A stretch of DNA of 64,000 nucleotides from Myxococcota bacterium (GTDB lineage: Bacteria > Myxococcota_A > Polyangia > HGW-17), in the NCBI GenBank assembly GCA_036802685.1, contig DAIRVS010000004.1:2651-66650 (forward strand), written 5' to 3'. The notes under the pieces are model-generated. The model worked only from the letters and a program-made list of their open reading frames with translations. It searched no databases and was not told where the DNA came from. How positions within the stretch are numbered: the first letter of the stretch is position 1; each line of letters opens with the position of its first letter. Below are positions 23,310-31,222 of this stretch, in pieces. Position numbers and translations under genes: made by a program.

Positions 23310-23825
23310 ATGGGCCCCCGCCTTCTCCTATCGCGCCTGATCTTCACGGGAATGCTCGCCGTGGCGCTCGCCGCCGCCTGTCCGGCCGGCGCCCAGGTGC
23401 GCCCCGGGCCGGTCACCATCAAGGCGGCCAAACTGCGGGTGCCCTTCCCCCGGAACTGGCTGTCGGCCGAGCCCAACGCCTACCTGCCCCAGAGCGTGCA
23501 CTGGTACCACCCGGCCGGCGCCCGCATCGTGATCACGGCGACCCCGAAGAAACCGGCCGACACGCTGGCCACCTGGACCGAGGCCGTGAAGAAGATCGCC
23601 GCCGCCCGCAAGCTCACCCTCGACGCGCCCAAGCCGACGAAGGTCGCGGGCGCCGACGCCGTGCGCCTCACCGCCCGCACGCGCACCCACCAGGTCGAGT
23701 TCCTGTTCTTCTTCCTGAACGACCAGTTCGTGCTGGTGAACTTCACCTGCGAGGCGAAGACGCCCGGGACCTGCGTGGTCGCCCCCGATTACGAGCGCAT
23801 GGTGTCCGGCCTCGAGCCGCTGTGA
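23310..23825 (+). CDS. hypothetical exported protein
   Basis: Signal-peptide-like N-terminus LIFTGMLAVALAAACPAGAQ; no recognised domain. Confidence 0.5.
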   Translation: MGPRLLLSRLIFTGMLAVALAAACPAGAQVRPGPVTIKAAKLRVPFPRNWLSAEPNAYLPQSVHWYHPAGARIVITATPKKPADTLATWTEAVKKIAAARKLTLDAPKPTKVAGADAVRLTARTRTHQVEFLFFFLNDQFVLVNFTCEAKTPGTCVVAPDYERMVSGLEPL

Positions 23826-23846
23826 CAACTTCCCAGGAGTTTGCTC

Positions 23847-24965
23847 ATGAAACGAATGATGACGCTCACCGGGGCCCTCGTCGCGCTGACCGCGCTGACC
23901 GCTTGCGACGACGGCGGCGGTGGCGGCTGGTACTATGACGTCGACTACATCGAGATCACCGACGACCTGCCCGCGCCCGGGAACCCCGCCGGCGCCTGCG
24001 GCGTCCCCGAGGAGGCCCTGCCCGCGGACACCGCCACGCCCACCCGGGTCATCGGCGACGGCACCCCCGCCTCCTGCACCTCCGCGGCCGTGGTGGAGGC
24101 GGTCGCCCAGGGCGGGATCATCACCTTCGACTGCGGCCCCGACCCGGTGACCATCGTCCTCGAACAGACCGCGAAGATCCGCAACGACACGGGCCCCGAG
24201 ATCGTGCTCGACGGCGGCGGGCTGGTGACCCTCTCCGGCGGAGACCGGCGGCGCATTCTTTACATGAACACCTGCGATCCGGACCAGGTCTGGACCACCC
24301 CCCACTGCAACGATCAGGACCACCCGCGGCTCACGGTGCAGAACCTGACCTTTATCGACGGCAACGCCGAGAACGAACCCGCCGAGACCGCCGGGGGCGG
24401 CGCCATCTTCGTGCGCGGCGGCCGCTTCCGCGTGATCAACAGCCGCTTCTTCGGCAACTCCGCGTCCCCCACCGGCCCCGACGTGGGCGGCGGCGCCATC
24501 CGCGTGTTCGACCAGTTCGAGGACCGGCCCGTGTACGTGGTGCACAGCACGTTCGGCGGCCGCGAGGACCTGGCCAACGTCGCCTCCAACGGCGGCGCGG
24601 TGTCCTCCATCGGCGTGAACTGGACCATCCTCAACAGCGTGCTCTCGTACAACCGGGCCATCGGGAACGGCGGGAACCCGGCCGAGGCGGGCACCCCCGG
24701 CGGCGGCTCCGGCGGCGCGATCTACAACGACGGGAACACCCTCACGCTCACGCTGTGCGGCGTGGCCATCGAGCACAACGAGGTCAACGCCTACGGCGCG
24801 GCCATCTTCTTCGTGAGCAACAACCACGACGGCACGATCCACATCGACGACTCGGTGATTCGGAACAACGTCAACCACTCGAACCACCCCTGGCAGATCC
24901 TCCCGGGCATCTCCGGCCACGACGACACGGTGCTGGACGTCGACGACGACTCGATCATCGAGTGA
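23847..24965 (+). CDS. lipoprotein with a right-handed parallel beta-helix (pectate-lyase-like) fold
   Basis: Lipobox LTAC; repeated GG/N-rich beta-helix rungs (GGGAIFVRGG, GGGAIRVF, NGGAVSSIG, GGSGGAIYNDGN); CCAGGAG SD upstream of the ATG at 23847. Confidence 0.6.
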   Translation: MKRMMTLTGALVALTALTACDDGGGGGWYYDVDYIEITDDLPAPGNPAGACGVPEEALPADTATPTRVIGDGTPASCTSAAVVEAVAQGGIITFDCGPDPVTIVLEQTAKIRNDTGPEIVLDGGGLVTLSGGDRRRILYMNTCDPDQVWTTPHCNDQDHPRLTVQNLTFIDGNAENEPAETAGGGAIFVRGGRFRVINSRFFGNSASPTGPDVGGGAIRVFDQFEDRPVYVVHSTFGGREDLANVASNGGAVSSIGVNWTILNSVLSYNRAIGNGGNPAEAGTPGGGSGGAIYNDGNTLTLTLCGVAIEHNEVNAYGAAIFFVSNNHDGTIHIDDSVIRNNVNHSNHPWQILPGISGHDDTVLDVDDDSIIE

Positions 24966-25064: not shown

Positions 25065-26102
25065 TTAAAAATCCAATAGTTCTGAAACCAATCGCCGTTG
25101 TTCGATGACACGCAGGCAGTAGGCGTTCTCGCCGAAGGCGCCGGTGTTGGCCGCGGCCATGGCCGTGCAGCCCCCGCGGCAGGTCTCGGCGAAGGCGCAG
25201 GCATCACACGCGCCGGTGAGGTGGCGGCGCTTGTTCCGGAAGCGCTCGAAGCGCGCGTCGTCGTTCCAGAGCTCGGCGAGCGGCGTCTCGCGCAGGTTGC
25301 CCACGATGAACTCGTCCCCCAGCGACAGGCACGGGAGCACCGCGCCGTCCGAGCGGATCCCGATGACCGCGATCCCGGCCATGCAGCCGGGGAAGCGCGC
25401 GTGGTAGGTCGCAAGGTGCCCGGAGAGCGGGTGGTAGCCGAAGTCGTCCATCGGGCACAGCCACAGGTCCGGGTCGTGCTCGAGGTGCCAGGTGACCTTC
25501 TCGCAGAAGGTGGCGAACTCGTCCACCGAGAGCGACCAGTCGCCGGTGAAGCGATCGCCGCCGGGGTTGGCGATCTGCACCTGCCAGGTGATCCCCGAGG
25601 CGCGGAAACGGTCGGCCAGCGCGTCGAACTCGTGGAAGTTCAACCGGCAGAACGTGGTGATGGCGTTGACCCGGGGGTGTCCGGTGGCCACCAGATCGCG
25701 CAACAGCCCCATCACCCGGTCGTGGCCGTCGACGCGGCGCATGGCCCGCACGGTCTCGGGGGTGGCGCCGTCCAGGGACACCCCGATGATCCACGGGTCG
25801 AGCGCGACGAGGGTGTGAAGGACCTGCGGCGTGACCAGGAGGCCGTGGGTGATCAGCACCGGCCGCAGCCCGTGGTCCTTCACCGCCCGGGCCACGGTCT
25901 CCCACCCCGGGAACAGCAGCACCTCGCCGCCGATGAGGGTCAACTCCTCGCACCCGAGCGCGGCCAGCTCGCCCACGAGGCGCACCCAGTCGTCGGTGCC
26001 GTACTCCCCGGCCCGCGGTGGCCCCGAGTTCGACGAGCAGTGCACGCACCGCAGGTTGCAGCGGTTGGTGAGCTCACAGACGGCGTATCTGATCGGGTTC
26101 AT
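25065..26102 (-). CDS. radical SAM/SPASM-domain enzyme, second maturase-like gene of the pair
   Basis: CNLRCVHC (CxxxCxxC) rSAM cluster near the N-terminus; C-terminal SPASM Cys pattern (CLSLGD...GACDACAFAETCRGGC); start overlaps the upstream stop (ATGA). Confidence 0.85.
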   Translation of the reverse strand: MNPIRYAVCELTNRCNLRCVHCSSNSGPPRAGEYGTDDWVRLVGELAALGCEELTLIGGEVLLFPGWETVARAVKDHGLRPVLITHGLLVTPQVLHTLVALDPWIIGVSLDGATPETVRAMRRVDGHDRVMGLLRDLVATGHPRVNAITTFCRLNFHEFDALADRFRASGITWQVQIANPGGDRFTGDWSLSVDEFATFCEKVTWHLEHDPDLWLCPMDDFGYHPLSGHLATYHARFPGCMAGIAVIGIRSDGAVLPCLSLGDEFIVGNLRETPLAELWNDDARFERFRNKRRHLTGACDACAFAETCRGGCTAMAAANTGAFGENAYCLRVIEQRRLVSELLDF

Positions 26103-27253
26103 GTGGGATCTAGCAGGGCGGCGGTGATCGCCCGGGTCTCCAGGCGGTGGTGGCAATACTCGTTCTCGAAACGGTCGCGGCAGACGGTGAGCAGGATGTC
26201 CGGGCAGCCGCCGTGGCAGACGCCGGCGTGGGGGCACGAGGCGCAGGCGCCGCGCAGGTTCTTCGCGTGGCACCAGGCCAGGTTGTCCCGGCAGCGCTCC
26301 TCGTCGAGGATGCGCGAGAGGCCGCCGGGGTCGCGGACGTTGCCCACCACGTTCTCGGGGAGCGCCAGCGCCGAGCAGGGGGTCACGTCGCCGTTGGCGC
26401 GCACGAACAGGTTCAAAATCCCGCCGGTGCAGCGCTTTTGCCAGGTGCGATGCAGAAGCGAGAGCGGGTGGCGGTTCGAGGGTGTCACCAGGTCGTCCAT
26501 GGGCACGATCCGATGCGGGTGGGCGGCGAAGATCGCGGCGACCCGCTCGCCCAGCGCGTGGTACTCCTCGGGGGAGAGCAGGATCCCGCGCGGGGTGCGG
26601 CCCTTGCCCGAGACCATCTGCACCTGCAGGCCGAAGCCCCGGGCGCGGGCGAAGTCCCAGAGCCCTTCGAGCTGGTCCAGGTTGAGCCGGGAGAAGGCGG
26701 CGATCAGGCTCACCTGCAGGCCGGCGGCGGTGAGCGCGTCGAGGCCGGCGAGGGTCTTCGCGTGGCTGCCCGGGCCGCGGACGGCGTCATGCACGGCCGG
26801 GTCCACGCCGTCGAGGCTCACGGTGACGAGCAGGATCCCGGCCTCGCGCCAGGCGCGGGCGATCGCGGGCGTGACGAGCGTGCCGTTGGTCACGAGGCGC
26901 ACCGGGAAGCCGGCCTCCCGGCCCGCGGCGATCACGTCCATCAGGTCCGGGCGGCAGCAGACCTCGCCGCCGGTGAGGGAGAGCTCGAGCATGCCGGCCG
27001 CGCGGGCGTCGCGCAGCACGTCCCGGATCTCCGCGAGCGTGAGCTCGTCGGGGCAGGCCCGGGGCGCGTCCACGTAGCAGTGGGGGCAGGCGAGGTTGCA
27101 GGCCCAGGTGATCTCGAGCTCGAGGATGTAGGGGTGGCGGTAGGTGAACTCGCGGGGCGTCTTGTCAGCCGGGTCACCGGACTTGAAGTACCGGAACGTG
27201 TCGCCGTCGCGGCGCACCCGGATGCCGTCGTGGGCCGAAGGACGCTCGGTCAT
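26099..27253 (-). CDS. radical SAM/SPASM-domain enzyme, first maturase-like gene of the pair
   Basis: CNLACPHC rSAM motif; SPASM/twitch cysteines (CTGGILNLF...PCSALAL...CASCPHAGVCHGGC); TGATG overlap with the upstream repeat-protein gene. Confidence 0.85.
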   Translation of the reverse strand: MTERPSAHDGIRVRRDGDTFRYFKSGDPADKTPREFTYRHPYILELEITWACNLACPHCYVDAPRACPDELTLAEIRDVLRDARAAGMLELSLTGGEVCCRPDLMDVIAAGREAGFPVRLVTNGTLVTPAIARAWREAGILLVTVSLDGVDPAVHDAVRGPGSHAKTLAGLDALTAAGLQVSLIAAFSRLNLDQLEGLWDFARARGFGLQVQMVSGKGRTPRGILLSPEEYHALGERVAAIFAAHPHRIVPMDDLVTPSNRHPLSLLHRTWQKRCTGGILNLFVRANGDVTPCSALALPENVVGNVRDPGGLSRILDEERCRDNLAWCHAKNLRGACASCPHAGVCHGGCPDILLTVCRDRFENEYCHHRLETRAITAALLDPT

Positions 27254-27975
27254 CAGAGATCGGTGCTGCGCACGCCGCCGCCGTAGCGGGGCATGGCGCC
27301 GTACTTGAGCGCGGGGGGCCGCATGGGCGTGGGTTTCATCTCCGGGGCCATCTCGCCTTCCTCCTCCTCCGCGTCGGGAGAGGGGGCGGGGGGCCGGACG
27401 CCGGCGCTGTAGCGGTGCTTGGAGTAGACCTCGTCGTCCATGGGGGCCGGGGGCGGGTCGTCGGTCTTCATCTCCGGCTCGGGTTCGACGTCGACGGGGG
27501 GCCGGACGCCGGCGCTGTAGCGGTGCTTGGAGTACACCTCGTCGTCCATGGGCACGACGCCGGTCGGCGTGGCGTCCTTGGTGGCCGGCTCGGTGGTCGT
27601 CGGGGTCGTGGGCACGGGGGCGTCGGGCTTGACGGCCGTGGTGCCCTCCTGCTTGCCGTTGGAGCAGGCGGCGCCCGAGAGGGCGACGGTGGCGGCCACG
27701 GCGACGGCGGTGCCCGAGAAGCGCTGCGCCAAGGTCCACAGGCGCACGAGTCGCGGCGAGGTCTCGGTCTCCATGCGGTCCCGGAAGGCGGCGTACACCC
27801 CCGAGAAGGTGCGGCGGTCCCCGGCCATGAGCGCGCACAGGCCGTGCTGCAGTTGGGCCTCGGCGTTGGCGGGCTCGAGGTCGGCGGCGCGGCCGAACCA
27901 CTCCCGGGCCTCGGCGAGGCGGCCGGCGGCCAGCGCGGCGCGGCCCTGTTCGATGCAATGGGTGGCTTCGTTCAT
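27253..27975 (-). CDS. TPR-like N-terminus, single TM/anchor, and Pro-rich C-terminal region with tandem repeats (2x PMDDEVYSKHRYSAGVRPP plus a degenerate third) - candidate substrate of the adjacent rSAM enzymes
   Basis: GAGGAGG SD; protein repeats are mirrored by a 108-nt-period DNA repeat (27393-27553) with a single mismatch; C-terminal ...PALKYGAMPRYGGGVRSTDL. Confidence 0.6.
   Translation of the reverse strand: MNEATHCIEQGRAALAAGRLAEAREWFGRAADLEPANAEAQLQHGLCALMAGDRRTFSGVYAAFRDRMETETSPRLVRLWTLAQRFSGTAVAVAATVALSGAACSNGKQEGTTAVKPDAPVPTTPTTTEPATKDATPTGVVPMDDEVYSKHRYSAGVRPPVDVEPEPEMKTDDPPPAPMDDEVYSKHRYSAGVRPPAPSPDAEEEEGEMAPEMKPTPMRPPALKYGAMPRYGGGVRSTDL
27393..27553. repeat. intragenic direct repeat: two ~57-nt near-identical copies 108 nt apart, encoding the PMDDEVYSKHRYSAGVRPP units
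   Basis: gccggacgccggcgctgtagcggtgcttggagta[g/c]acctcgtcgtccatggg occurs at ~27393 and ~27501. Confidence 0.85.
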
Positions 27976-27994: not shown

Positions 27995-28507
27995 TCACAA
28001 CTTGTCCATCACGCGCTCGCAAAGGTCGGTGACGCGCGGATCCTGATACTTCATGGGCAGCGTCTGGCAGCGGATGCGCAGCACCCGGGGCATGTACGGC
28101 TTGCGACCGTCGGCCAGGGACTCGAGGATGCGCGTGAGCAGCCGCAGCACGGTGGGCAGGTGGCTGATCTCCAGGGCGCGCTCGCAGAACTCCATGTCCG
28201 AGGGGACCTTCTCGTGTTCGTCGAGGATGCGGCGGGCCTCCTTGAGGAACTCGGAGGGCTCCTCGAGGCGCAGGCACTTCTTCACCTGGGCGGCGACGCT
28301 GCCGTCCGACGGGCTCTCGATCTTCTTCTCGCCCTCGGCCTTGCGGATCATGTCGCCCAGCTTGGACGAGTTGAACAACTTCTCGACGTCGGACTTGCTC
28401 ACGCGCATGCCGCTGCCGCGCGGGGCGGGCTTCTCGTCCTTCTTCCCGCGGCCCGAGGAGCGGTCGCGCTTGGCGTCGATCTCCTTCCAGGTGGGTTTGT
28501 CGGCCAT
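27995..28507 (-). CDS. hypothetical protein (Lys/Glu-rich N-terminus)
   Basis: 170-aa ORF tightly spaced in the operon (2 nt after the upstream stop); no recognised motif. Confidence 0.55.
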   Translation of the reverse strand: MADKPTWKEIDAKRDRSSGRGKKDEKPAPRGSGMRVSKSDVEKLFNSSKLGDMIRKAEGEKKIESPSDGSVAAQVKKCLRLEEPSEFLKEARRILDEHEKVPSDMEFCERALEISHLPTVLRLLTRILESLADGRKPYMPRVLRIRCQTLPMKYQDPRVTDLCERVMDKL

Positions 28508-28509
28508 CG

Positions 28510-29073
28510 TCAGCCCTCGGCGCTCTGCGGCGCCCCGTGCAGCACGAGCACCGCCTGGTAGACCTCCTGGTTCAGCGCCACGGCGACGTCCTCGGGGACC
28601 TCGAAGCGGCGCGCCATCTCCCGGGCGAACTCGGGGTGCAGGAAGTTCTGGTTGAGCACGAAGTGGAAGACCGCGCGGCGGTACAGGTACTGCCGCACGC
28701 CGGCGCGCAGCTCGTCCACGCGGGCGGCGGGCAGCACGCCCGAGGTGAGCTTCTCGAGCAGGGTCTTCTCGTCGTCCGAGAACTCCTCGTCGGCGTACGC
28801 GGTCATGAACAGGAAGGCCGTGAAGCAGTCGCGGGCGGCGTCGGTGGAGAGCGCCTGCAGGTCGCCGTCCGACAGGGGGCGGTACTCGGCCAGGAGCGCG
28901 GAGAAGTTCTCGCCGGGGAAGAACTCGCCGACGACCTGCTGCAGGTACTCCCGCTCCCGGGGGTCCATCTCGCCGTCGGCCTGGGCGACCTGCACGAGCC
29001 CGCGGAAGATGGTCGTCTTGTCGGCGGGGGTCAGCGTGGTGTCACGCAGGATGGGTTCCAGTTCCAAAGCCAT
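28510..29073 (-). CDS. TerB-like (tellurite-resistance TerB / DjlA N-terminal-like) domain protein
   Basis: Paired helical acidic motifs (ADKTTIFRGLVQVAQADGEMDPREREYL..., DDEKTLLEKL) typical of the TerB fold. Confidence 0.5.
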   Translation of the reverse strand: MALELEPILRDTTLTPADKTTIFRGLVQVAQADGEMDPREREYLQQVVGEFFPGENFSALLAEYRPLSDGDLQALSTDAARDCFTAFLFMTAYADEEFSDDEKTLLEKLTSGVLPAARVDELRAGVRQYLYRRAVFHFVLNQNFLHPEFAREMARRFEVPEDVAVALNQEVYQAVLVLHGAPQSAEG

Positions 29074-29076
29074 GAT

Positions 29077-29406
29077 TCACCTCTTTTCCTCGATTTTCTT
29101 CAGGTACTCCTGGAGGAGCTTCAACTCCTTCATGCCCACGGAGTTGAACTTGATCCCCATCTCGTTCTCGGGAGCGGGCTTGAACCAGGCGACCTCGCCC
29201 TTGAGCTCGATGGCGGCGTCCAGGTCCGGGAAGGTGATCACCAGGTCCACCTGCGCGCCCACCGGCTCGGGCTCGGAGGTGGCCAGACGCAGGCCGCCCA
29301 GACTCAGATCGTAGATGCGGTGGTTGAGCAGGAACTCGCGGCCCGTGTAGTCGACGAAGGCTTCCAACTCGAATCGTTTGTGACGGCGCTTGTCCTTGGA
29401 GGTCAT
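29077..29406 (-). CDS. PilZ-domain protein (c-di-GMP-binding motifs present)
   Basis: RRHKR (RxxxR) and DLSLGG (DxSxGG) PilZ signature motifs; start taken at MTSKDK (the ORF extends to 29493). Confidence 0.7.
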   Translation of the reverse strand: MTSKDKRRHKRFELEAFVDYTGREFLLNHRIYDLSLGGLRLATSEPEPVGAQVDLVITFPDLDAAIELKGEVAWFKPAPENEMGIKFNSVGMKELKLLQEYLKKIEEKR

Positions 29407-29464
29407 CAGGTGGCGGCCCTTTCCCGAAGGTTCGGTGACTGCACGGGGTGCAAAACCGTCCACC

Positions 29465-29493
29465 AGCGTAAAAGAGCGGTGCGGTCCCGTCAA
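29465..29493 (-). promoter_or_regulatory. possible promoter of the PilZ-to-rSAM operon: -35 TTGACG, 17-nt spacer, -10 TACGCT
   Basis: Minus-strand TTGACGggaccgcaccgctctttTACGCT about 55 nt upstream of the PilZ ATG. Confidence 0.3.
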
Positions 29494-29538: not shown

Positions 29539-30303
29539 TTATTTGCCGGCGGCGGGCTTGTCCTCGCCGGCCTGGAGCACCTGGACCCCCTTGGGCGGCG
29601 TGAAGACGAACTTCTTGTCGTCGATGGGCTTGTTCATGGTGATCTCGGAGAAGGTGATCTGGTTCTTGTTGCCCTCGTGGTCGTAGACCAGGCTGGACAC
29701 GACGGCGCCCGCGGCGTCCACCACGAACATGACGATCTTGAAGTGCGGCGAGCGCTTCTTGGGCAGCAGTTTCAGGGCCTTCTGACCGGGGCCGGCGAAC
29801 TTGGAGTTGGGCACGATCTTGACGTGGAACTCGTCGGTGAGCTTGCCCTGGCCCCACAGGAACTTCACCGGCGTGGGCAGCGCGGAGTCCTTCACGTCGC
29901 GCCACAGCGCCTGCTTGCTGCTGGGCTCGTACATCCAGGCCTTCTTGCCGTCGATGAGGAACATCTTCTTGTCCGGCGCCAGGTAGTCCCACAGCATGAA
30001 GCCCGGCTTCTTGATGTAGATCACGCCGCTCTCGGCGGGCTGGTCCCCGTGGAACTTTTTGGAGAAGACCTGCTTGAACTTCGCCTGAAACGTGTTGATT
30101 TTGTTGTAATAATTCTGAGTCACCGCGATGGCGGCCAGGGCGTCGGGGAGGTTGTAGGTCTTCAGATCCTCCTCGGGCTCGGCGGGCTTGGCCGGCGTGG
30201 GCGCCGGGGGCGTCGTCGGCTTGGCGGCCGGCGGGGTGACCGGCTTGGGCGGAACCTGCGCCAGGGGGGCGAACAACAGGACGAGCGAGATCAGGGTGTG
30301 CAT
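29539..30303 (-). CDS. LolA-like outer-membrane lipoprotein carrier
   Basis: Signal peptide, Pro-rich linker, then a LolA-fold-like region (KINTFQAKFKQ...YIKKPGFMLWDY...GKKAWMYEP). Confidence 0.6.
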   Translation of the reverse strand: MHTLISLVLLFAPLAQVPPKPVTPPAAKPTTPPAPTPAKPAEPEEDLKTYNLPDALAAIAVTQNYYNKINTFQAKFKQVFSKKFHGDQPAESGVIYIKKPGFMLWDYLAPDKKMFLIDGKKAWMYEPSSKQALWRDVKDSALPTPVKFLWGQGKLTDEFHVKIVPNSKFAGPGQKALKLLPKKRSPHFKIVMFVVDAAGAVVSSLVYDHEGNKNQITFSEITMNKPIDDKKFVFTPPKGVQVLQAGEDKPAAGK

Positions 30304-30550: not shown

Positions 30551-31222
30551 ATGACGCGACATTTCCTGTGGTGCCTGTGCCTGGTGGGCGCGGTGGTCGC
30601 CTGTGACGCGAGTCCGGCTGAAGAAAATAATGATAATTTGAACAATGTAAATAATGTAAATAATATTAATAATCTCAATAATATTAACAATTTAAATAAT
30701 ACAAATAATTTGAATAATATAAATAATATTAACAACACCAACAACACGACCCGCATCCCTCCGAACCAGAACAAGACCGAAGCCCAGGCGCTGGCGCAAC
30801 TGTTCCCCGGTGCCACCTCCGAGGTCGCCACCAGCGCCAGCGGGAACTATTATGTGCTGCGCGACGGCGCCCAGACGGTGGTGGGCTACGGCCTGACCGC
30901 CACCCATTACGGCTTCAACGCCCAGATCACCACCCTGCTCGGGGTCTCGGCCGACGGCGTCACCGTGGGCCTCGAGACCATCAACCAGCGCGAGAGCTGG
31001 TGGTCGTTCGTCCCCGAGAGCTGGTTCACGGAGTTCACCGGGGTCGACACCGCCGCGATCACGCTGCTGCCCGGCTACGACGAGAACTGCTATCGCTGCA
31101 CCGCCCTGTACGACGCCCTCGGCGTGGACGCCGTCTCGGGCGCCACCTACACCTCCGACGCCCTGATCAAGGACGCCATGGACGGTTATCTGCACTGGTC
31201 CGAGGTGGTCCCGGCCGAGTAG
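30551..31222 (+). CDS. FMN-binding-domain lipoprotein with an N-terminal Asn-rich (NNxNN) linker
   Basis: Lipobox VVAC; C-terminal DAVSGATYTS matches the FMN_bind covalent-attachment motif; 30613-30760 encodes a poly-Asn tract using AT-ending codons. Confidence 0.65.
   Translation: MTRHFLWCLCLVGAVVACDASPAEENNDNLNNVNNVNNINNLNNINNLNNTNNLNNINNINNTNNTTRIPPNQNKTEAQALAQLFPGATSEVATSASGNYYVLRDGAQTVVGYGLTATHYGFNAQITTLLGVSADGVTVGLETINQRESWWSFVPESWFTEFTGVDTAAITLLPGYDENCYRCTALYDALGVDAVSGATYTSDALIKDAMDGYLHWSEVVPAE
30613..30760. repeat. AT-rich low-complexity codon tract (AAT/AAC repeats) encoding NNDNLNNVNNVNNINNLNNINNLNNTNNLNNINNINNTNNTT
   Basis: Seen directly in the sequence; local GC about 20% against about 70% background. 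Confidence 0.9.

Follow-up and report, generated by a model that had tools for sequence, protein, structure and literature searches.

Why would a bacterial gene lying directly ahead of a pair of radical S-adenosylmethionine (rSAM) enzyme genes carry a short peptide repeat whose copies are nearly identical in DNA? This question is raised by a 64,000-nt stretch of a Myxococcota bacterium (GenBank assembly GCA_036802685.1, contig DAIRVS010000004.1, positions 2,651 to 66,650 of the forward strand), which is called the window here. The gene (27253..27975, minus strand), recognized by its open reading frame (ORF), its homologues and an AGGAGG Shine-Dalgarno sequence about 8 nt 5' of the ATG start, encodes a 240-aa protein with a tetratricopeptide repeat (TPR)-like leader, a putative internal lipoprotein-type signal and a disordered Pro-rich region that contains the repeats. 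We think it probable that this protein is a dedicated multi-core substrate of the two downstream rSAM/SPASM enzymes, with the core H-[RK]-Y-S-[GA]-G-V. The cores marked by the repeat belong to an uncharacterised family of exported proteins that spans phyla and whose members would be substrates of an rSAM pair, a kind already known among rSAM-matured ribosomal peptides and proteins, and the most likely explanation is an undescribed system that chemically modifies a protein before its export.

Based on a repeat search of the window, two 58-nt copies were found at 27387-27444 and 27495-27552, which are identical at 57 of 58 positions (98%) and whose starts are separated by 108 nt. Both translate to the same 19-aa unit, PMDDEVYSKHRYSAGVRPP, located at aa 142-160 (core unit 1, 27496..27552, minus strand) and aa 178-196 (core unit 2, 27388..27444, minus strand, one nucleotide different from unit 1). 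An earlier sequence-only reading had described two stretches of about 57 nt, 108 nt apart, that differ at one base and encode identical 19-aa units, and the search reproduces this. A third, diverged copy lies at 27261-27318 with 62% DNA identity, and its peptide KYGAMPRYGGGVRS (aa 224-237) ends three residues short of the C-terminus; the core Val is five residues from the C-terminus, where the same reading had placed a degenerate copy. As delimited by DNA identity, alignment and a loose PRYGGGV pattern, this C-terminal copy is KYGAMPRYGGGVR (aa 224-236, 27268..27306, minus strand), and in the alignment (columns 380-395) it falls opposite the final canonical H[RK]YSGGV copy of the distant relatives. 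Note that Tandem Repeats Finder overlooked these copies, because they are spaced rather than head-to-tail.

Could the DNA identity simply follow from the encoded peptide? With codons drawn as they are used in 11 confident window genes (3045 codons, GC content at third positions 0.947), two independent encodings of the 19-aa unit are expected to differ at a mean of 7.0 codons, and the probability of at most one difference is 0.0009. Therefore, the copy-to-copy DNA identity exceeds the expectation from amino-acid constraint plus codon bias. However, in the 45 nt that encode EVYSKHRYSAGVRPP, the window copies show only 3-7 differences from orthologues whose proteins are 43-60% identical, and 1-3 differences from the orthologue at the locus L004 (88% identical protein). 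Consequently, much of the similarity can be read as shared ancestry under strong constraint, and these two appear to explain most of it. The earlier interpretation of the identity as recent duplication, gene conversion or selection on the exact sequence thus stands as far as codon-bias chance is concerned, while its weight is reduced by constraint and ancestry. Within genomes, the copies differ at one nucleotide in the window, one in L004 and none in L003, and paralogous copies have lineage-specific synonymous states in common (both have GTC in the window, GTG in L004 and TAT/CGA/CCG in L003); this is the pattern of concerted evolution or repeated duplication, seen at very few sites. Compared with L004, there are 3 synonymous codon changes in unit 1, 1 in unit 2 and 5 in the 28 C-terminal residues, and no amino-acid changes in any of these parts, while the linkers do change. 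Such synonymous divergence with an unchanged peptide indicates purifying selection on the repeat peptide.

The conservation of the peptide could be followed at two depths. Ten close homologues (41-100% identity) were found, all from uncultured Myxococcota (Haliangium/Kofleriaceae-like metagenome-assembled genomes), each with one or two units; EVYSKHRYSAGVRPP is invariant in all ten, down to 41% identity, and likewise Cys104 and an 'RLW' element described below. Farther away, about a hundred relatives of the first enzyme, rSAM1, are 41-57% identical to it (Planctomycetota, Phycisphaerae, Polyangiaceae, Desulfuromonadaceae, 'Deltaproteobacteria'), after which the identity falls sharply to about 33-35%, where the mycofactocin maturases begin. 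All six distant loci reached via rSAM1 have a 215-323-aa protein preceding the rSAM pair, and these proteins follow one plan: a TPR-like domain, 'RLW-x-x-Y', a hydrophobic run, usually a Cys, and a variable region that holds [SG]-H-[RK]-Y-S-G-G-V two to four times. By profile searching in 1.84 billion representatives and then applying a strict motif pattern, the family was extended to at least 74 representative clusters from Myxococcota, Planctomycetota/Phycisphaerae and 'Deltaproteobacteria', with 134 strict motif copies. They have in common a two-TPR-like domain of about 75 aa, a short hydrophobic stretch with, in most cases, a lipobox Cys at its end, and an exported region, disordered or variable, in which H-[RK]-Y-S-[GA]-G-V occurs one to four times (one copy in 25 clusters, two in 39, three in nine and four in one). 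The repeat count therefore varies among orthologues, from 1-2 in the close clade to 1-4 across the 74 clusters, which the sequence-only reading had named as an outcome that would support a multi-core substrate. One further candidate, L011, was rejected as a family member, where only the TPR part was matched and neither the rSAM pair nor the motif was present.

What, then, is the core? Among the non-fixed positions of the 134 strict copies, Ser occurs in 98% at +3, Val in 97% at +6 and Ser in 83% at -2; position +7 is Y in 46%, R in 22% and F in 11%, and Pro is dominant at +9/+10. We read the family-wide core from these alignments as H-[RK]-Y-S-[GA]-G-V, and the most robust residues, degenerate copies included, are [RK]-Y-x-[GA]-G-[VL]. 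The window form SKHRYSAGVRPP is a local flavour that is also seen elsewhere, for example as YSGHRYSAGVRPP in the protein P0133, and degenerate C-terminal copies similar to that of the window occur in 540-aa members (SRYQGGL). The core first proposed from the window, R-Y-(S/G)-(A/G)-G-V-R, was right about the invariant Tyr; the His belongs to the core as well, the first Arg may be Lys, and the trailing Arg is not conserved. Its interpretation as a recognition or modification motif gains support, since no other part of the exported region is as well conserved, and the modification would be the predicted step. Across about 270 kb of fetched loci and the 64-kb window, the motif is confined to the precursor genes. 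The motif strings HRYSGGV, HKYSGGV, HRYSAGV, RYSGGVY and YSGGV have no occurrence in the searchable literature, and keyword searches yielded only analogues (bufferins and HXS). In addition, among the 49 proteins with at least two cores (P0131-P0286), 32 contain both HK and HR cores, 17 only HR and none only HK; this mixing is above chance (permutation P 0.006, not corrected for phylogeny) and may hint at two sub-site types for two enzymes.

The rSAM pair accompanies the motif almost everywhere. In 16 of 17 contexts, from at least three phylum-level groups, the gene directly downstream of the precursor is rSAM1, and rSAM2 is present in all 16 rSAM-bearing contexts, adjacent in 14 and displaced by an insertion of 1.2-4.7 kb in two. 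A reverse search from the precursors P0138 and P0142 again found the rSAM pair directly downstream. Accordingly, loci that keep the rSAM genes and have lost the repeats, or a repeat region lacking conservation, were not what these contexts showed. In the window, rSAM1 (384 aa, 26099..27253, minus strand; Pfam Radical_SAM 2.2e-24, and SPASM) has a start that overlaps the precursor stop (TGATG), and rSAM2 (345 aa, 25065..26102, minus strand) overlaps the rSAM1 stop with its own start (ATGA), so that the genes are translationally coupled. The pair need not be coupled in this way, since rSAM1 and rSAM2 are split in two genomes, by about 4.7 kb with three genes for secreted or lipoprotein-like proteins in L006 (4204-8853), and by about 1.2 kb of lower-GC DNA with a 186-aa ORF in L007 (9847-11037). 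According to the locus gene tables, the distant loci have no further gene in common, and neither a protease nor a transporter nor a protein with a recognition element for peptides that are made on ribosomes and modified after translation (RiPP recognition element, RRE) recurs in them.

The two enzymes are paralogues with 33% identity. Their scores are 87.0 (rSAM1) and 75.9 (rSAM2) bits for Radical_SAM (cutoff 29.5) and 26.7 and 47.8 bits for SPASM (cutoff 21.5), and each has CxxxCxxC, GGE and a full CxxCx5Cx3C SPASM motif; we assign both by these features to the radical SAM/SPASM superfamily of peptide-modifying enzymes. Within NCBIfam, neither reaches any equivalog cutoff. The best match of rSAM1 is MftC (TIGR03962, cutoff 265 bits) with 132.4 bits, where rSAM2 has 109.1 bits; PqqE (TIGR02109, cutoff 381 bits) gives 98.9 and 78.4 bits for the two enzymes, and the best match of rSAM2 is 'nif11-class peptide radical SAM maturase 3' with 140 bits against a cutoff of 725. 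PADLOC found merely generic viperin-like rSAM similarity. The nearest solved relatives of both enzymes are the peptide modifiers SkfB, PqqE, SuiB and CteB. Neither enzyme has an N-terminal RRE-sized or PqqD-like recognition domain. In rSAM1, an N-terminal extension of about 35 aa (residues ~10-45; window 27119-27226, minus strand) precedes CxxxCxxC and is conserved across phyla with the pattern V.V.R...G..RYF....EY.Y..PFILELE ('DG..RYF....EY.Y..PFILELE'). An RRE would be longer, and we regard the extension as a candidate element for docking the TPR leader.

How would the enzymes recognize their substrate? The N-terminal part of the precursor (aa 1-72, 27760..27975, minus strand) appears to be a two-TPR-like four-helix domain by Pfam, AlphaFold2 (AF2) and Foldseek, and it is proposed as the cytoplasmic leader or docking module because neither enzyme has a PqqD-like or RRE domain. 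Pfam TPR_2, TPR_16 and TPR_11 match it below the gathering score (E 2.6e-4 to 2e-3; TPR_2 21.3 bits against a cutoff of 27). In the AF2 model, which is based on a 26-sequence alignment, residues 1 to ~88 have a predicted local distance difference test (pLDDT) value above 90, with helices at 3-16, 20-33, 38-50 and 54-69 and a long helix at 74-101 beyond the four-helix domain; the remainder is of low confidence (block means 40-68) with no predicted secondary structure, and the cores have pLDDT values of roughly 50-60. The best Foldseek matches of the model in the PDB are TPR consensus designs (1na3_A, with a target-normalised TM of 0.70; E ~0.015), and A23, L49 and F57 are among the TPR-domain residues kept across phyla. 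A shorter product starting at an internal Met, for which the sequence-only reading had suggested a search, was rejected: Met67 is missing in P0008 and P0009, and such a start is further disfavoured by the conservation of the N-terminal domain at the protein level and the strong Shine-Dalgarno sequence before the first ATG. Pfam, NCBIfam (June 2026) and PADLOC have no family for the precursor, and the core region matches no NCBIfam model at E<=10.

Behind this domain, aa 73-104 (27664..27759, minus strand) comprise an amphipathic 'RLW' helix, a short hydrophobic region and a lipobox-like LSGAAC with Cys104, a probable internal signal peptide for signal peptidase II. In the window, R75..R78..R85 are followed by FSGTAVAVAATVALSGAA and then by C104; L79, W80 and C104 are invariant among the close homologues (C104 in 10 of 10). 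Across the family, [GAS]-Cys stands straight after the hydrophobic run in 56 of 74 members; counted from the last charged residue up to the Cys, the uncharged stretch is 12-23 residues long, with a median of 15, and the median position of the Cys is 108, behind the folded domain of about 75 aa. Thus the window protein has the positive n-region, the short h-region and the small residues before an invariant Cys that are features of lipoproteins, although its signal is not at the extreme N-terminus. The hydrophobic segment resembles a lipoprotein signal peptide in an internal position, not a permanent, 20-residue transmembrane helix, and the mature product would probably lack the TPR domain. The TPR-like domain and the hydrophobic anchor of the sequence-only reading are hence both real and conserved, while the anchor is better described as such a signal. 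Display on the far side of the membrane, which that reading had also suggested, is supported by the lipobox Cys and by passengers of some members, namely ExbD/TolR-type domains after the hydrophobic segment in P0131 and P0143 (64 bits) and a PEP-CTERM sorting tail in P0186 (19.9 bits against a cutoff of 16). The ExbD/TolR-like domains lie between a first core, just past the signal segment, and a C-terminal core in P0131 (L012:6033-7004), P0143, P0160 and P0170, those of the latter two being judged by eye; the name of P0131 at NCBI is 'biopolymer transporter ExbD'. The core-bearing part of the precursor is therefore predicted to be extracytoplasmic, and signal peptides were found on neither rSAM1 nor rSAM2. 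With extracytoplasmic cores and signal-less enzymes, the modification would have to precede export.

These observations can be combined into a proposed mechanism. The pre-protein would be made in the cytoplasm, where its folded two-TPR N-terminal domain would serve as the leader or docking module, and the two paralogous rSAM enzymes would each modify every core (in the window, two good cores and one degenerate core). For the chemistry, the most likely candidate is a cross-link or another change that has the invariant Tyr at its centre and involves the His/[RK] beside it and the Val four positions further along; a link from the Tyr to this Val/Leu, to the His/[RK] ahead of it, or to both, is only a guess. 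The hydrophobic segment and lipobox at residues ~86-104 would then route the C-terminal part through Sec, Cys104 would be acylated by Lgt, and signal peptidase II would cut before Cys104, with leader and signal peptide lost in a single cut. The expected product is a lipid-anchored, Pro-rich, disordered periplasmic or outer-membrane protein displaying modified motifs. Some other chemistries were considered and rejected. The lipobox Cys as thioether donor does not suit one Cys per protein whatever the number of cores and none in 18 of 74 members; sactipeptide or ranthipeptide chemistry does not suit cores that have no Cys; and a sulfatase-type S-x-[PA]-x-R reading of S-A-G-V-R does not suit an Arg that is not kept family-wide, with an anaerobic sulfatase-maturating enzyme (anSME) score of 46.9 against a cutoff of 349.

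Could other explanations account for the same locus? The precursor might be a scaffold, that is, a permanent type-II membrane protein whose TPR domain recruits the rSAM pair to act on a lipid, a cofactor or an unlinked peptide, while the conserved periplasmic motif, unmodified, would serve for binding or recognition. TPR domains are known for contacts between proteins, under co-translational export the motif would lie across the membrane from the cytoplasmic enzymes, and the lipid-modifying tetraether synthase 7tol is weakly matched by rSAM1 (E 3.5e-7). However, no alternative substrate gene is conserved in the distant loci, the best relatives of the enzymes are peptide-modifying SPASM enzymes rather than lipid enzymes, a hydrophobic run of 15 uncharged residues at the median that ends in a lipobox is too short for a stable anchor, and a near-invariant 8-residue motif of variable copy number in disordered linkers is the usual signature of RiPP cores; we consider the scaffold unlikely. 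A variable copy number, together with Pro-rich acidic spacers that vary between conserved cores, would suit a classical multi-core RiPP, in which the cores are excised and released as small diffusible peptides and the linkers or passenger domains are mere spacers. Such release is rather improbable in our judgement, as no protease or transporter is conserved with the module, some members have folded ExbD-like, roughly 400-aa or PEP-CTERM passengers that separate the cores or follow them, a product with a lipobox should be a tethered one, and the only conservation around the cores that might mark a cleavage site is Ser at -2 and Pro at +9/+10. The simplest alternative is an ordinary recent internal duplication or gene conversion in a low-complexity linker, to which the adjacent rSAM genes are irrelevant. 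It would agree with copies that are 0-1 nt apart within genomes against 1-7 nt between genomes, with their common lineage-specific synonymous states, and with P0003, a single-copy close relative that reads like a recombinational collapse of copies 1 and 2. Nevertheless, a peptide invariant down to 41% identity with a core conserved across phyla, units with synonymous but zero amino-acid changes, and an rSAM pair in 16 of 17 contexts make it very improbable as a full account, and concerted evolution is compatible with a modified substrate without replacing that explanation.

Several points weigh against the substrate reading itself. It rests on genes and sequence, and the modification is predicted. 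The TPR domain is a generic interaction module, so the precursor could be a partner of the enzymes instead of their substrate. A folded 75-aa domain ahead of a lipoprotein signal peptide is unusual, and processing by Lgt and LspA is deduced from the lipobox; moreover, cytoplasmic modification of the exported region requires post-translational export. The lipobox Cys is absent in 18 of 74 members, which have A-x-A-like sites or a hydrophobic run passing directly into the first motif. The third copy in the window is without the His and Ser of the core and may be no substrate. Finally, P0186 (L018:5001-6242), which has a single core and the PEP-CTERM tail, is without an rSAM pair next to it and has transposase-like ORFs as neighbours; this could be an orphan substrate that is modified in trans, or a locus that has been rearranged.

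Is the proposed system a member of one already described? The nearest functional analogue is the HXS antiphage system, whose exported effector HxsA carries HxS repeats and is matured in the cytoplasm by two rSAM enzymes, HxsB and HxsC, together with the small HxsD; SHRSS is modified by +8 Da, and the N-terminal processing of HxsA depends on the rSAM enzymes (Nat Commun 2026, PMC13128918); 99.7% of HXS systems are from Pseudomonadota (PMC13128918). The likeness consists of two adjacent rSAM enzymes with two Fe-S cluster regions, an exported substrate with several short His/Ser repeats, cytoplasmic maturation before export (proposed here) and N-terminal processing tied to maturation. The SHRSS site and H-R-Y-S have a common H-R-x-S pattern, which is a lead only. 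However, HxsA has an N-terminal signal peptide, a peptidoglycan-binding domain and tandem HxS triplets, whereas the present family has a TPR leader, an internal lipobox and an 8-residue Tyr/Gly-Gly-Val core. In a comparison by NCBIfam models, HxsB and HxsC are outside the 25 best families for either enzyme (25th-ranked: 57.9 and 46.6 bits), the distant loci show no HxsD-like small partner in the minimal module, and the taxonomy is Myxococcota, Planctomycetota and 'Deltaproteobacteria' rather than Pseudomonadota. By enzyme models, effector architecture, the HxsD partner and taxonomy, the family appears to be outside HXS.

Bufferins are RiPPs with Sec signal peptides that are modified by MNIOs, oxidative enzymes that depend on multinuclear non-heme iron (PMC11626156, PMC12452194). 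They resemble the proposed system in cytoplasmic modification followed by general Sec export, with a signal peptide in place of leader protease and transporter, and in a minimal module with no dedicated exporter. They differ in using an MNIO/DUF692 enzyme with a partner, Cys-based cores and metal chelation, with no TPR domain before the signal and no lipobox, where two rSAM/SPASM enzymes are found here; the locus gene tables contain neither an MNIO (DUF692) nor a DUF2063-type partner. Mycofactocin and PQQ are connected by the next neighbours of rSAM1 (about 33-35% identical) and by PqqE among the closest solved structures, and in both the enzyme acts on a Tyr-containing peptide. The mycofactocin precursor MftA ends in a C-terminal G-V-Y, and many cores here also read G-V-Y. 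However, that precursor is short, whereas the present one has 240 aa, ends in ...GVRSTDL and has internal, repeated cores, in which the post-Val residue is not conserved, unlike the C-terminal GVY. The loci contain no MftB/PqqD RRE protein, no small conserved RRE gene and no downstream tailoring genes, and with scores far under the equivalog cutoffs, membership in the mycofactocin and PQQ systems is not indicated. Domain-sized leaders ahead of cores are also known from the Nif11-/nitrile-hydratase-like leader families, with leaders of about 70-80 aa and small secreted peptides as products; the leader here differs in being TPR-like and followed by a signal peptide. Triceptides are multi-core rSAM RiPPs with repeated short aromatic-containing cores in variable copy number, in which a 3-CyFE rSAM/SPASM enzyme cross-links an aromatic-X-X motif into a three-residue cyclophane; their products, too, are small secreted peptides, and the core here contains the triplets H-[RK]-Y and Y-S-[GA] (triceptide-type aromatic-X-X). 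No triceptide maturase model is among the best NCBIfam matches of the enzymes.

The surroundings of the module are as follows. Upstream of the precursor, separated by gaps of 2-19 nt, are the genes of a 170-aa protein with no family (27995-28507, minus strand), a TerB-like protein (28510-29073, minus strand) and a PilZ protein recognized by Pfam (29077-29493, minus strand), with a LolA gene farther upstream (29539-30303). All Myxococcota-clade loci keep the order TerB-like, 170-aa, precursor, rSAM1, rSAM2; the TerB-like and 170-aa genes are absent from the distant loci by tblastn, and PilZ is ahead of the block in the window and in the gene tables of L001-L003. Consequently the TerB-like, 170-aa, PilZ and LolA genes are outside the minimal three-gene module. 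Between the window and L001, L003-L008 and L010, the identity is 65-95% for the 170-aa protein and 62-88% for the TerB-like protein, both of which are thus better conserved than the precursor with 43-88%. The wider neighbourhood is housekeeping (UvrC, transketolase, cyclophilin, RNase H, thioredoxin reductase) and not a defence island. Right after the operon on the opposite strand, two genes encode secreted or lipoprotein-like proteins with no Pfam or NCBIfam family, of 374 aa (23841-24965, plus strand) and 171 aa (23310-23825, plus strand); the 374-aa protein has the lipobox LTALTAC and Gly/Asn-rich repeats suggestive of a beta-helix. Another tandem repeat of the window, AT-rich amid a genome of roughly 70% GC, with a period of 9 and about 10.8 copies, is located at 30633-30735 in the ORF 30551-31222 (plus strand), and encodes an Asn-rich run (NNVNNVNNINNLNNINNLNNTNN...) just past the lipobox of a 223-aa FMN_bind-domain lipoprotein.

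A fuller version of the substrate reading may be put forward tentatively, and we would hold it with some doubt. There would be an unnamed, phylum-spanning maturation system, in which the TPR leader and the lipoprotein signal keep the pre-protein cytoplasmic while the rSAM pair modifies the Tyr-centred core, and one cut by signal peptidase II yields a lipid-tethered envelope protein with 1-4 modified motifs. In function this would be a cousin of the HXS effector, from which it would differ in motif, leader logic and taxonomic range. The role of such an envelope protein would possibly be in envelope defence, metal/redox chemistry or adhesion.

If the proposal is true, radical-SAM chemistry on peptides and proteins would gain a new substrate family with a clean and almost invariant 8-residue core, and probably a new reaction as well. 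HXS would also be joined by a second case in which an exported repeat protein is matured by two rSAM enzymes, here in phyla with no described counterpart. The family is at present annotated only as 'hypothetical protein', 'TPR protein' or 'ExbD', which hides it from RiPP mining tools. The order of folded TPR leader, lipoprotein signal peptide and cores suggests a general way of coupling cytoplasmic modification to Sec export with no dedicated protease or transporter, and the fusion of the cassette to ExbD-like or PEP-CTERM passengers suggests that the motif may be a portable post-translational 'tag' for envelope proteins.

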